Below are positions 8,097 to 12,347 of a stretch of 64,000 nucleotides of DNA, piece by piece. Source of the stretch: a virus (taxonomy: Duplodnaviria; Caudoviricetes); the IMG/VR virus record IMGVR_UViG_3300035544_000079, positions 8,136-72,135 of that record. One strand, given 5' to 3'. The notes below the pieces were generated by a model, which was given only the letters and a program-made list of their open reading frames with translations, was not told the origin of the DNA and did no database searches. The position numbers and the translations under genes were made by a program. How positions within the stretch are numbered: the first letter of the stretch is position 1; the number at the start of each line of letters is the position of its first letter.

Positions 8097-8471
8097 TTAA
8101 CTTGGTTTTAATTTAATTTCACTTAAATCTCTAAAATCAAAGTAACATAACCAAAGACCTCTTGAAACTCTTTCATTGAACTCTTTCTTTACGAACTTTC
8201 TTTTACTAGCATCTAAGTTTTTAGGCTTTAAGCCTAACCCTAAACACAAATTCTTTATATCATTAGTTGTCAAATTGACATTAAAGAGTGCTTTTACTGT
8301 ATTTATTATCTCTTGATAAGTCAATTCAGTATAATATTTCTTTAAAAACTCTTTGACACTTTGTAATAAAACCTTGTGTTTACTTTCTTTTATAATATTA
8401 TATAAATAATACCCTCTTTTGGTCTTTTTTCTTGGAGGAGTTACTTTAATATCTAATTCTTCCATAGTCAA
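8097..8471 (-). CDS. Hypothetical basic protein, possible HTH
   Basis: 124 aa; LTYQEIINTVKALFNVNLT resembles a helix-turn-helix segment. Confidence 0.5.
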   Translation of the reverse strand: MTMEELDIKVTPPRKKTKRGYYLYNIIKESKHKVLLQSVKEFLKKYYTELTYQEIINTVKALFNVNLTTNDIKNLCLGLGLKPKNLDASKRKFVKKEFNERVSRGLWLCYFDFRDLSEIKLKPS

Positions 8472-9433
8472 TCCTCACAAAAAGGACTATTTTCTGATAA
8501 TTTTTCACAAAGTTTATTAAAAAAATCATTCCGAAGATAATTCTTACTATAGCTTTGATTATCTTTTTTCTTTAGAACCTCTTGAAAATATATGATATCT
8601 TCATCTTTATAAATATTATACCCTTGAAAACATAAGTTGATAAAAGCTTCTTCAGTATTAGTTAAATTAAATTCCTCCATATAATTATAAAAAAGAGTCT
8701 TTTTATCAACTGAATCTAAAATATCATCAGAAAAATCTATATTTTCAATATCATAATAAATACTTTTTCTGAATCTATTAATTACTTTTATATCAATATC
8801 TTGAACTTTACATAAATCAATTAATCCCTCTCCTTGTATTTTATTAAGTATTTGTTCAACCTCAGTTTCCATTTCCTCTATACTAGAAGGTGTTTTTAAG
8901 TGTTTACCATAAAACATTACCTTATAAACTACTTCATCATTATTTGTATAGAAGAATACCTCTTTATTTTCATTTTTATCTAAGTCATAAATATTTTTAC
9001 TTTCAATTTCAAAAGTTAAAGACATTTTTTCAATAATCTCATTAAGTAAATCATATTTATTGGTATGTTTTTTAACTTTAATATTACAGAAAACCTTGTA
9101 CTTAAACTCTTGAGGGTTTTTTACCATAACCTTTTGAATGTTTAAATAATCTCTTGTCTTTATCTTATCAAACAAGTAGTTATAAAGCTTTTTATTTGCT
9201 TCTTGTTTTTCAAGGTTATTTAAAATACTTATTATCTCTTGTTTATGTTTAGAGACAATATCTGAAATATAATTTTCAGTAGTATCTTTTGGAACATTAT
9301 ACATATGTAATAACTTTTGAGCTAACCTACTACAAAGTCCTTTTGAAACTTTTTCTACTTTATTCTTCTTTTGGACATATTTTCCAAAAATAATCTCAAA
9401 TTGAGACTCCGTTAACTTAACTTTTGTATCAAT
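8468..9433 (-). CDS. Putative sigma-like/transcriptional regulator, 321 aa from an ATT start
   Basis: Frame open 43 codons above the track ATG (9304) to ATT at 9433, 5 nt after AAGGAGG. C-terminus LTNTEEAFINLCFQGY resembles sigma region 4 (weak). Confidence 0.45.
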   Translation of the reverse strand: MDTKVKLTESQFEIIFGKYVQKKNKVEKVSKGLCSRLAQKLLHMYNVPKDTTENYISDIVSKHKQEIISILNNLEKQEANKKLYNYLFDKIKTRDYLNIQKVMVKNPQEFKYKVFCNIKVKKHTNKYDLLNEIIEKMSLTFEIESKNIYDLDKNENKEVFFYTNNDEVVYKVMFYGKHLKTPSSIEEMETEVEQILNKIQGEGLIDLCKVQDIDIKVINRFRKSIYYDIENIDFSDDILDSVDKKTLFYNYMEEFNLTNTEEAFINLCFQGYNIYKDEDIIYFQEVLKKKDNQSYSKNYLRNDFFNKLCEKLSENSPFCED

Positions 9434-9456: not shown

Positions 9457-9469
9457 AAGTAAGACTTAA
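9457..9469. repeat. 13-bp direct repeat AAGTAAGACTTAA, copy 1 (copy 2 at 10131-10143)
   Basis: Identical 13-mers flank gene 9466..10098, one on its stop codon and one 33 nt above its start. Confidence 0.8.
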
Positions 9470-10098
9470 ATGTCTACTTCAATCTCTGTTTTAGCATTAA
9501 CCTCTGATAAAGTCATATCAATCTCATCAAGAAGATAATTAAGATTTTCTAACTCGTATCTGATTTCATCAATATTTAAACCTACTATTTCTGCACCCCA
9601 CATTTGGGTATAAGTATCAGTTAAAGTCTTAGTTAAATCTTTTGATGTTTGGTTTTTATTAGTCATAGCACTTTCAACTTGTCTTGAAACCTCTTGTTCA
9701 ATTTTATGTTCTTGTTGTTCAACACTCTGTTTAAAAAGGTTATACTGTCTTTCAAGATTATTTAATCTATCAATTTTATAACTAAGAGAAGTTTTTAAAT
9801 CAATTAACTCAATAATTGAATAACTATCTGTTTTCTTCCCTAATTTAAATTCAACCTTAGTTTCTACATTAGCTTTTGCTATAGCTGATTTAACTACTCT
9901 TCTATTCTCAAATAATTTATCAAAACTTTCCTTGTTAGCTTTAACGTCTTTAAGAAACTGTTCCTCAGTTAAATTTGAATTATTTACTAATTTGTTGTTT
10001 ATTTTTGTATCAAAACCAACATAATTATTTAAAAGCCTTTTTTCATAAAGCTTAACCTCGGCTAATGCCCTTGTTATCGACATAGTTTTCTTTCCCAT
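9466..10098 (-). CDS. Conserved coiled-coil protein (MSITRALAEVK...LSEVNAKTEIEV type)
   Basis: 210 aa, mostly helical; termini recall DIP1984-like/DUF proteins (from memory, unverified). Confidence 0.6.
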   Translation of the reverse strand: MGKKTMSITRALAEVKLYEKRLLNNYVGFDTKINNKLVNNSNLTEEQFLKDVKANKESFDKLFENRRVVKSAIAKANVETKVEFKLGKKTDSYSIIELIDLKTSLSYKIDRLNNLERQYNLFKQSVEQQEHKIEQEVSRQVESAMTNKNQTSKDLTKTLTDTYTQMWGAEIVGLNIDEIRYELENLNYLLDEIDMTLSEVNAKTEIEVDI

Positions 10099-10132
10099 AT
10101 TTTCTCCTTTAATTTTTAATTATAAGTCAAAA

Positions 10133-10453
10133 GTAAGACTTAACAAAGAACTATCTAAAATTAAATAGCTAGGTACAAACTAAAACAATTTAATAAATGT
10201 TTAAACTTACCCCTAGATTTTTAGAAAGGTTATATGGTTTAAAATTTAAAACAAAATCTTTAATTATAAGAACTTTAATTTTTAACATTTTACCTTTTAA
10301 GCTTTAGGACTTTTAAGAAAAAGTATTTTCCTAAGCATGGAAATTAATTAAAAGGTTAAATATAATTATTTTACAACACTAATTTAACGAAAATGTTGTA
10401 TTAATTTTTATAGTTTTCATTTAATTATAAAATAGTCCTTTATTAAGTCTTAC
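10133..10453 (-). ncRNA. Candidate structured leader RNA, ~320 nt
   Basis: 10453-10432 pairs with 10154-10133 as a 22-bp helix whose only two non-WC pairs are G-U on the minus strand; internal hairpins; no ORF. Confidence 0.6.
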
Positions 10454-10585
10454 CTATTTTATAGAGTAAGACTCTGTCCAAACATGACTAAAAGTCAAGA
10501 TTTTGAAAGTTTTTATTGCACTTTCTAGTATTGATACCTACATTCTTCTAAATACTTACTTAAATCTATTCGTTTGTACAGAAGA

Positions 10586-10609
10586 ATTATAACAAATAAC
10601 TCCTTAAAG
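10586..10609 (-). promoter_or_regulatory. Promoter CTTTAAG-N11-TATAAT driving the leader RNA
   Basis: ttaagtaat-ctttaag-gagttatttgt-tataat. Confidence 0.65.
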
Positions 10610-10792
10610 ATTACTTAATTTATCAATATTTTTTAAAGAATTTTGAAATTTCTTTTCAATTTCTTGTTTCTCTTTTTCAAACTCTTTGTAAATCCTATGA
10701 ATTAACTGATTAACATGACCCACAGGAATCATTGCTCCATTTTCTTCTGTTAATAAATTAAACATTTCTATTTCAGCTTCTCTTTCAGTCAT
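10604..10792 (-). CDS. Hypothetical protein
   Basis: 62 aa, SD and own promoter. Confidence 0.55.
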   Translation of the reverse strand: MTEREAEIEMFNLLTEENGAMIPVGHVNQLIHRIYKEFEKEKQEIEKKFQNSLKNIDKLSNL

Positions 10793-10856: not shown

Positions 10857-12347
10857 TTAACCTTTAATCAATCTTTTGCTAAATTTTACTTTATAACCTA
10901 ACTCTTGTTCGATTAACAAGCTCAACTCATCTAGGTTTACATCTTCCTTTGTAATAAAAGCGTCATAAAGAAGTAAATCATGTGAATAGTTCTTAGTAAT
11001 TAAATCAAGTATTTGACTTTCTATACCAAAATAGTAGTGCATAATCGCCTTATTTGTATTCCATTTACTCATATATTTAGCACTTTTATTTCCTCTTGAA
11101 TTATACAGAATATCTTTTCCATTTTTATCTTTCTTTAGAAACTTATTTTGAATAGATTTCTTTAGGTAAGAAAATAATTTCTTACACTCATCATAAATGT
11201 CATAAGCACTTGGGGTATTTTGTAAAATATATTGAATTTTATCTACACCATAATCATTAGCCCAAGAGTTAGTATGTACCCCATATATCCCTAAATTAGC
11301 TCCAAAGAATATTGCTAAATAAAATTCTTTAGCTTCTTTATAAGAAAAGCCTAAATCAACAATTTCTTGTCTACACTTTTCCTTATTATCAATATAGTAT
11401 TTTATCTTAGGAAAATCATGTGTTTTATGATACTTCTCACCTGTTTGATATAAAATAGTAGGAGCTGAATTTTCAATATCTATTTCATAATACCCTTCAA
11501 AAACTTGTTCCCTGATACTTTTTTCTAAGTTTTGTATGCCAATATACTTCTCTCCACCAAAATTAACTAATCTACCTCCATCTTTTCTTTCATAGTTTAA
11601 AAAATGATTTCCATTATTGTACTTGAAATCTAAATTAAATAGAATTATAAAATCAGTACTATACATTAAATCAGTTTCTCCATCTGTAACTCTTTTTATT
11701 AAGTTTTTTACATTCTCTTGATTATAAGTAAACTTATGTCGGTAGCTCATTCTTGGTCTATTAGACGGAGTTATTGCTGTACCTTGTGCTAACTCTTTAA
11801 TTTCATAAGAATATTTATTAATATTTTTACTTAATTCAGTTCTTGTCAAATTTTCTCCTTGCATTAAATCTTTCTTTGTACTGTACTTATTATTATTATT
11901 TGGATTTATATATCCAATTTTGGTTTTAAACTTCTCTCTTGTGTAATATCTTGTCCTAGAACTCATACCATAACTATATAACTCTATAATAAATTCATAC
12001 CGTAGTCTATAAGCAAAAGTCTTTTCAGTAAAACTATTACAAACTTTACTATCTTTAATTGATTCAAAGAAATAGTCAAAGCTTTTCATTTTATTAAACC
12101 TTTTAAGATTTCTAGTTACATTACTAAAATAATCATAATATATTGAAACATATCCTTTATATTCTTTATGTTTAGCAAAGTTACTATTTATAGACTTATT
12201 TATTAAATAAAGTAAGTCAAAAGTATGTCTAAAGTCATAGAATTTATCATAATGGTTATTAAGAAATTTATTTAAATCAAAGTTAGTGCTAATTAATAAA
12301 TCTTTTGATTTAACTTTACTATGTTTCTTCTCTTTATTTTCTTTTAT
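10857..12347 (-). CDS. Minimal PolA-superfamily (TV-Pol-like) polymerase, paralog 1, 496 aa from an ATA start
   Basis: GGRL...QNLEKSIRE; motif A YEIDIENSA; motif B KEAKEFYLAIFFGA; motif C LLLYDAF. Frame extends 86 codons above the track ATG to ATA 5 nt after TAAGGAGG. Confidence 0.65.
   Translation of the reverse strand: MKENKEKKHSKVKSKDLLISTNFDLNKFLNNHYDKFYDFRHTFDLLYLINKSINSNFAKHKEYKGYVSIYYDYFSNVTRNLKRFNKMKSFDYFFESIKDSKVCNSFTEKTFAYRLRYEFIIELYSYGMSSRTRYYTREKFKTKIGYINPNNNNKYSTKKDLMQGENLTRTELSKNINKYSYEIKELAQGTAITPSNRPRMSYRHKFTYNQENVKNLIKRVTDGETDLMYSTDFIILFNLDFKYNNGNHFLNYERKDGGRLVNFGGEKYIGIQNLEKSIREQVFEGYYEIDIENSAPTILYQTGEKYHKTHDFPKIKYYIDNKEKCRQEIVDLGFSYKEAKEFYLAIFFGANLGIYGVHTNSWANDYGVDKIQYILQNTPSAYDIYDECKKLFSYLKKSIQNKFLKKDKNGKDILYNSRGNKSAKYMSKWNTNKAIMHYYFGIESQILDLITKNYSHDLLLYDAFITKEDVNLDELSLLIEQELGYKVKFSKRLIKG

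Follow-up and report, generated by a model that had tools for sequence, protein, structure and literature searches.

A conserved structured RNA encoded beside phrog_1491-family genes in phages

Does the gene-free stretch that stands next to a 210-aa protein gene in this phage genome encode a folded RNA, and does such an RNA belong with the protein? The DNA that we analyzed, referred to as the window herein (64,000 nt), is part of a 72-kb IMG/VR virus record with ~27% G+C from an oil-field metagenome. Reading the letters alone, the original prediction placed a ~320-nt structured RNA closed by a 22-bp helix on the minus strand at 10133-10453 and took it to form a module with the gene. Our analysis confirmed a real folded non-coding RNA that is conserved, covarying, strand-specific, and linked to the protein gene.

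Anatomy of the RNA and its near relatives

The structured RNA runs from the 5′ arm to the 3′ arm of its closing helix, P1, and spans 321 nt (10133-10453, minus strand), as supported by its folding energy, its identity in near relatives, and its match to a profile of the family core. All of the elements named in the prediction were found where they had been placed. The minimum free energy of a 336-nt stretch was −75.8 kcal/mol versus −50.2 ± 4.7 kcal/mol for 100 dinucleotide shuffles (z −5.43), none of which folded as well. No ORF longer than 36 aa was found inside 10133-10453, in agreement with the claim that the region holds none.

The outer 5′ arm of P1 (10453-10432, minus strand) pairs with 10154-10133 through 20 Watson-Crick and two G-U pairs; as foreseen, these two imperfect pairs form as G-U only on the minus strand, whereas transcription of the plus strand would give A-C. 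The inner helix, likewise present as described, joins AAUUAAAU (10426-10419) to AUUUAAUU (10166-10159), and its counterpart in the relative L006 reads AUUAUAU/GUAUAAU, a compensatory change. Immediately past the 5′ arm lies the junction GAAAAC (10418-10413), and 36 distinct family members have the same start, GAAAAC or GAACA, after their 5′ arm.

Three internal hairpins had been proposed and all three are present, with one of them not kept in relatives. The first, UACAACAU (10400-10393) with GUGUUGUA (10379-10372), was recovered by folding and inspection and is read as stem A of a putative pseudoknot (10400-10372), for which the support is comparative only. Within its loop, inspection of the sequence identified GUUAAAU (10388-10382) as the 5′ strand of stem B, with AUUUAAC (10361-10355) as the 3′ strand, which is preceded by the A-rich loop 3 (10371-10362). 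The second hairpin, UUUCC (10343-10339) with GGAAA (10331-10327), is the one not conserved, and it lies in an insert (10354-10318) whose length and sequence differ among relatives. The A-rich middle of the RNA (10317-10217) is a phased repeat array of AAAAG, AAAG, AAAU, or AAAC units, each followed by ~3 nt, ending in AAAAAU; it contains five strict and ~10 loose units compared to 0.6 strict units in shuffles. The third hairpin (10216-10169), with the base stem CUAGG/CCUAG, is conserved and covaries in 38 sequences. After it come CUA (CUG in the family) and, by pairing, the inner (10166-10159) and outer (10154-10133) 3′ arms of P1, which together with CUA fill 10168-10133. The outer 3′ arm stops 24 nt short of the Shine-Dalgarno sequence AGGAG (10108-10104), close to the ~25 nt that had been estimated.

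Eight proteins with 40-55% identity to the 210-aa protein were found in metagenome assemblies, and the contigs of seven of the eight were compared. No near relatives were found in the phage collection by DNA or protein search, nor in the viral contigs by a protein pattern or a three-block DNA pattern. In four near lineages, the gene-free stretch is 67-71% identical to the window, which is the same level as coding sequence. When each near homologue was folded alone, the same closing helix and 3′ hairpin were obtained, and the alignments of near relatives contain compensatory changes in P1, the inner helix, and the first hairpin. Variant contigs with ~92% identity (runs X4 and X5; seawater and algae metagenomes) carry listed SNPs that avoid the paired positions checked, and the SNPs at 10389 and 10354 flank stem B of the pseudoknot and leave the stem untouched. 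The one large change in this variant is a 23-nt self-complementary insertion after 10323 (10323/10324; stem AUCUUU/AAAGAU), which falls in the variable region.

The wider family and tests of its structure

A first profile of the conserved core gave weak matches in loci of distant homologues (23-33% protein identity), all on the strand of the gene and all downstream of it, and the first distant alignments kept the 3′ hairpin with different letters. After four rounds of nhmmer, exactly one match per locus was found in 77 of 77 distant loci and in every near locus, GC-rich loci included and always on the gene's strand. The window itself has a single match (10312-10167, E 1.1e-10 at iteration 4). 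Since the RNA shows compensatory changes next to homologues of the 210-aa protein in the four near lineages and this linkage in the 77 distant loci, the proposed RNA-plus-protein module holds up. From comparison of sequences, the RNA belongs to a widespread, uncatalogued family that always accompanies phrog_1491/T5.085, with the window as a divergent, AT-rich member.

The family shares one plan: the P1 5′ arm, GAAAAC or GAACA, a putative H-type pseudoknot with an A-rich loop 3, an insert, the array, AAAU|C with the 3′ hairpin, and GCUG, the last base of which opens the P1 3′ arm. The window meets this plan at P1, with its 8-bp inner and 22-bp outer helices and its GAAAAC, and reads GCUA where the family has GCUG. 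Across the family, the RNA measures 240-460 nt, P1 12-36 bp, and the variable insert 0 to ~250 nt.

From lineage to lineage, the sequences of the P1 arms are unrelated, but the pairing is maintained. In 28 distinct helices, we counted 374 Watson-Crick, 67 G-U, and 1 A-C oppositions and 5 others (p 5e-19). The counting rule treats G-U and A-C transition mismatches alike, and the anchor pair of each helix came from a folding program that favors G-U. The excess of 67 G-U over 1 A-C implies that selection acts on a single strand, namely the gene's sense strand. This count bears directly on whether the locus could be an element of the DNA itself, such as an origin, a single-strand initiation site, or a MITE bounded by the 22-bp inverted repeats. 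Its AT-rich composition, terminal inverted repeats, short direct repeats, and position among early and replication genes would suit such an element, but the G-U count rules out selection on duplex DNA. Moreover, the orientation follows the gene in 85 of 85 loci, the element occurs as a single copy in the 72-kb record, its flanks AAAAUAG and UUUUGAC are not duplicated as a target site would be, and sense-oriented tRNAs are embedded in two lineages. We therefore give a DNA-level explanation almost no credence.

Genuine tRNA genes were found within the P1-closed RNA, between the pseudoknot and the array, at L043:3713-3787 (Rfam 53.5 bits) and L044:3729-3805 (65 bits). Processing by RNase P and RNase Z would, we infer, cut each of these two RNAs into two pieces held together by P1.

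For the 3′ hairpin, we used an alignment that included the conserved flanks. Its base stem is 96.3% paired in the 38 sequences, and four of its five pairs have changed on both sides. The covariation score over both helices tested was 0.583 versus 0.206 ± 0.022 in shuffles, a level that none of 500 shuffles reached, and slid registers scored 0.06-0.15. A separate count of our own for the hairpin agrees with this result. In the inner stem, only the first three pairs are supported. The pseudoknot topology recurs with unrelated stem sequences in L006, L007, L016-18, L040, L045, L050, L052, L060, L080-82, and L089; in L006, for instance, the equivalent of stem B is UGAUAAA/UUUAUCA. In the window and at least 15 lineages, stems A and B can be placed at the same site although their letters differ, without a formal alignment-based count. 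In a shuffle test of each sequence, the pseudoknot did no better than shuffles (median z ~1), leaving its support comparative only.

Strict AAAG units occur 5.9 times per RNA across the family versus 1.3 times in shuffles, within ~10 phased units. Their spacing peaks at 7, 14, 21-22, and 28 nt family-wide, with a minor series at 8 and 15 nt. The bases after AAAG are low in information and mostly YUY. When the repeat period (7 or 8 nt) was compared to protein clade, there was no clean split and hence no signal of co-evolution.

In accord with the earlier failure to match the RNA to any family, a covariance-model scan of the window against all 4227 families of Rfam 15, including ROOL, GOLLD, Y RNA-like, RNase P, tmRNA, and group I intron models, gave 0 hits at gathering, and 10050-10700 yielded only chance-level rows (E > 1). 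ARAGORN found no tRNA and no tmRNA in the window. In the loci of relatives, Rfam reported only tRNAs and one separate group I intron (92 bits; L035:4632-4878), situated ~700 nt downstream from the RNA, in a phage locus rich in tRNAs. The resemblance of AAAGUCC to RNase P CR-I was considered and rejected, as there was no RNase P hit at E < 10. We found the family in no RNA catalogue or paper, and found no paper on the RNA of the T5 region or on T5.085. The cluster with an 8-nt period (#8,581) of 10.64898/2026.10.21.760802 is a different element with TAGTC units.

Linkage to the partner gene and its transcription

The partner gene (9466-10098, minus strand; 210 aa) is on the strand of the RNA, 34 nt downstream, and matches phrog_1491, equivalent to T5.085, over its full length (PHROG E 3.9e-29). 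The label of phrog_1491 is "tail fiber protein". Homologues of this family occur in 743 phage records, mostly of T5-like phages, in which the counterpart is T5.085. No Pfam or NCBIfam family was found for the 210-aa protein, no Pfam family for six homologues, and a PDB sequence search with the 210-aa protein gave no match. Its predicted structure (pLDDT 86) consists of helical hairpins and a small sheet, with five helices (H8-22, H45-77, H95-146, H155-167, and H176-203) and four short strands, and seven basic residues are conserved. All Foldseek matches of the model to the PDB had E > 0.3, and the best VIA-align Z of 8.2 is at the level of generic helical bundles; as far as the model can tell, the protein has no recognizable fold relative. 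A relationship to DUF6847/DIP1984 is only a faint lead: the profile does not hit the window protein, it reaches the L006 homologue at E 0.04-0.07, far below the curated cut-off, and a structure search of the atlas gave TM 0.64/0.74 to a DUF6847 cluster, again a lead only.

The RNA had been described as leading the gene. It does precede the gene in the window and in four near lineages, an order swapped relative to the rest of the family, in which it follows the gene (77 distant loci). A 62-64-aa ORF separates the two in three near relatives (L004:1398-1592, L005:782-976, and L007:648-836) and is absent in the window and L006. Because this ORF intervenes, the RNA is not tied to the ribosome-binding site of the partner gene. 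In T5-like phage AKFV33, the core lies at L089:3359-3514 and a 17-bp P1 begins ~10 nt past the stop codon of orf083, with no annotation there. Measured from the stop codon of the gene, P1 begins at a median distance of ~23 nt, an approximate value as some table rows are in error, and thus a separate promoter would not fit in between. In a few lineages, RNA and gene are 100-1900 nt apart (approximate figures). The adjacency survives the gene-order swap in the window clade; as the window is a deeply divergent, order-swapped member, selection keeps the linkage of RNA and gene rather than their relative positions. The RNA-before-gene order is peculiar to the window clade and, since position is not conserved, the RNA is not a leader in the regulatory sense.

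This distribution counts heavily against a riboswitch-like or autoregulatory leader that controls translation of the 210-aa gene in cis. Such a leader could account for an RNA that ends 24 nt before the Shine-Dalgarno sequence in the window, and a short hairpin after the 3′ arm (AAGUC/GACUU in the window, UUGAGU/ACUCAA in relatives) could compete with the outer end of P1. However, the Shine-Dalgarno sequence is left untouched by that hairpin, of which just two independent versions are known. In addition, L004, L005, and L007 have a further ORF between the RNA and the gene, and the RNA comes after the gene in the 77 distant loci, so that we see very little chance of a cis-acting leader.

At three loci (L050:5560-5993, L081:4549-4934, and L018:4001-4303), other sequence intervenes and places the RNA 350-1900 nt downstream of the partner gene; adjacency is thus not absolute.

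The RNA is more conserved than the adjacent gene in ~440 T5-like phages. For the RNA, 151 records reach ≥99% identity and only 14 fall at 80-90%, whereas for the gene 16 records reach ≥99% and 211 fall at 80-90%; at ≥90% identity, the RNA is found in 426 of 451 T5-like records. None of the T5-like records listed annotates it. Across the family, the RNA is frequently located within tRNA arrays. A cassette for transcript processing or stability, in which P1 would be an RNase III-type site that shapes the maturation or half-life of neighboring mRNA or tRNA precursors without any function in trans, would fit the long P1 (12-36 bp) that flanks the element within polycistronic units and its location beside or around tRNAs. 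We find this improbable, as the ~250 nt of conserved interior, with pseudoknot, phased repeats, and hairpin, far exceeds what a cleavage site needs and is under more constraint than the gene.

A promoter of its own had been assigned to the RNA at 10586-10609. A strict scan for sigma-70 −35/−10 elements failed there; what stands is an extended −10, TGTTATAAT (10594-10586), inside a recurring motif, without transcript data. The likely promoter (10619-10586, minus strand) comprises ATTAAG (10619-10614), TTTAAG (10608-10603), and this extended −10, and it rests on recurrence of the motif and on no experiment. Seven minus-strand sites in the window (58322, 53370, 49100, 47408, 45019, 10829, and 10594) match ATTAAG..TTTAAG-N8-TGnTAnAAT, and all seven stand before minus-strand gene blocks and are without a canonical −35, which suggests a putative phage-specific promoter class. 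One gene upstream, at 10854-10818, is a copy of the motif with 86% identity. Transcription is inferred to start near 10579, in the absence of transcript data; among public runs, no RNA run is listed that contains this phage. This would place a 5′ leader at 10579-10454 (minus strand) ahead of P1, with a small hairpin AGAGU/ACUCU at 10475-10463; its extent hinges on the inferred start. No terminator-like site was found between the promoter and the 210-aa gene, and the RNA and gene are therefore most simply one transcript.

A sigma-70-like site, TTGTTA-16-TATAAT (10 of 12 positions), was seen at 10146-10119 on the minus strand, where it shares sequence with the P1 3′ arm and could by itself drive the 210-aa gene; sigma-70-like sites are not enriched over shuffles at this locus. 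An exact 13-nt direct repeat, UUAAGUCUUACUU, brackets the 210-aa gene (10143-10131 and 9469-9457) and was weighed as an alternative pairing partner. This was rejected, as no relative repeats its own 3′ arm past the gene. Repeats of 12 nt are common by chance in these AT-rich loci, and the 13-nt repeat, which is not conserved in relatives, is probably a matter of chance or specific to the lineage.

Known systems and the proposed role

The best explanation that we can offer, though one held with only even confidence, is a stable ~320-nt non-coding RNA gene that is co-transcribed with the 210-aa gene, excised, and assembled into a protein-bound particle; the transcript, the binding, and the processing are all inferred. 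In this model, the RNA and the adjacent gene would be co-transcribed from the phage promoter. The long P1 helix would clamp the two ends and mark the RNA for excision from the polycistronic transcript, like the processing stalks of rRNA, while the pseudoknot and 3′ hairpin would serve as a fixed scaffold. Several copies of the partner protein may then bind the row of ~10 phased AAAG units, and the resulting ribonucleoprotein particle would act early in infection. Contact between protein and RNA is inferred only from their linkage and from the phasing of the repeats, as there are no binding data for any member.

Rows of evenly spaced short RNA motifs are read by oligomeric proteins in Bacillus, where TRAP on the trp leader and HutP on hut mRNA recognize (G/U)AG or UAG triplets. 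The array described here is similar in being such a row. Whereas the TRAP and HutP targets are cis-regulatory mRNA leaders, the present RNA is a self-contained, P1-closed RNA with AAAG units that stands on either side of the gene.

ROOL and GOLLD, two large and conserved RNAs with multiple domains, are found in phages and prophages, where they often neighbor tRNA genes; their function is unknown. To our knowledge, they have no obligate neighboring protein and no phased repeat array, and their covariance models do not match the window RNA or its relatives. By their example, the RNA could be a machine that acts alone, as a multimeric assembly or a decoy, with the protein sharing its pathway and not coating the repeats. 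The RNA is large, multi-domain, phage-borne, and often found in tRNA arrays, as are ROOL and GOLLD, its AAAGCUU-type units are partly self-complementary, and its conservation exceeds that of the protein gene. Nevertheless, a single protein family is linked on the same strand to the RNA in 85 of 85 loci, even where the gene order is swapped; this is at odds with an RNA that works by itself, as is the absence of an Rfam match to ROOL or GOLLD. We judge the RNA-only alternative unlikely but worth keeping in mind.

The end-pairing stem also recalls the bacterial and phage Y RNAs (YrlA type) that associate with Ro60/Rsr, in which the paired ends form a long stem around an effector module; in L043 and L044, the module so enclosed contains a tRNA. 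The partner differs in that it is not a TROVE/Ro60 protein, given the lack of a Pfam family for the window protein or six homologues, and there is no Rfam match. We know of no Y RNA with a pseudoknot plus an AAAG array. Species 1 and 2 of phage T4 (rnaC and rnaD) are stable RNAs of unknown function within a tRNA cluster that are co-processed with tRNAs, and no dedicated protein partner is known to us for either. They resemble the present RNA as phage-encoded RNAs within tRNA arrays and differ in being shorter.

Similar in layout is VIPR, in which Vipr is a RAMP protein (RRM, G-loop, and thumb) and vrRNA is ~100 nt long with 9-16 YNNGG pentamers (GGY/NN), the NN of which is hypervariable, and protein protomers line up along the vrRNA repeats (PMC13142463). 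Both systems are phage-encoded, and both place a small protein gene beside a non-coding RNA of short, phased, constant-plus-variable units joined to a pseudoknotted part. The two differ in several respects. The protein here models as helical hairpins, whereas Vipr is a RAMP; the RNA is 240-460 nt long with a long P1 and AAAG+3 units spaced 7-8 nt apart, compared to ~100 nt and YNNGG; and the whole RNA is highly conserved, while the variable bases of vrRNA are hypervariable. No RAMP was listed among the Foldseek or VIA matches of the partner protein, although absence from the list does not exclude the fold. We rejected membership in VIPR, as the repeat motif is AAAG and not YNNGG, the variable positions lack hypervariability, and the model of the protein is helical.

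By analogy to VIPR, the ~3 variable bases after each AAAG could still form a noncontiguous, programmable guide displayed by a protein filament. The vrRNA-like layout, with constant and variable units beside a pseudoknotted scaffold and next to a small phage protein gene, speaks for such a guide (PMC13142463). A programmable guide is hard to reconcile, however, with variable positions that are not hypervariable in an RNA that as a whole is 90-100% identical across ~440 T5-like phages, with post-AAAG bases that are low in information and mostly YUY, or with a protein model that shows no RAMP features, and we hold it to be very doubtful. A long shot of much the same standing is that the AAAG+NNN array represents a second, independent noncontiguous RNA code, in which a filament of the helical protein would hold AAAG and display the triplets to a fixed, conserved nucleic-acid target of the host or a competing element. 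If true, logic like that of VIPR would have been built here from components, both protein and RNA, that are unrelated to it.

Conserved RNAs of large size that come with an obligate protein partner have mostly proved to be machines, as with RNase P, SRP, tmRNA, and the CRISPR and VIPR effectors. Here, an RNA of ~350 nt with a dedicated protein partner has gone unannotated in hundreds of sequenced phages, including T5-like phages, which are relatives of one of the oldest laboratory phages. An RNA-protein pair in such a tractable model phage is directly testable, and a new activity could emerge from it, whether in infection or in inter-phage conflict.

Two other minus-strand genes flank this pair in the window. 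The 410-aa gene upstream (10857-12089) had no match in PHROG or Pfam. The 278-aa gene after the partner gene (8468-9304) had no family match either, and the module of this clade could include it as a third component; this gene is kept in near relatives at 281-289 aa (L006, L007, L008, L086, and L087).
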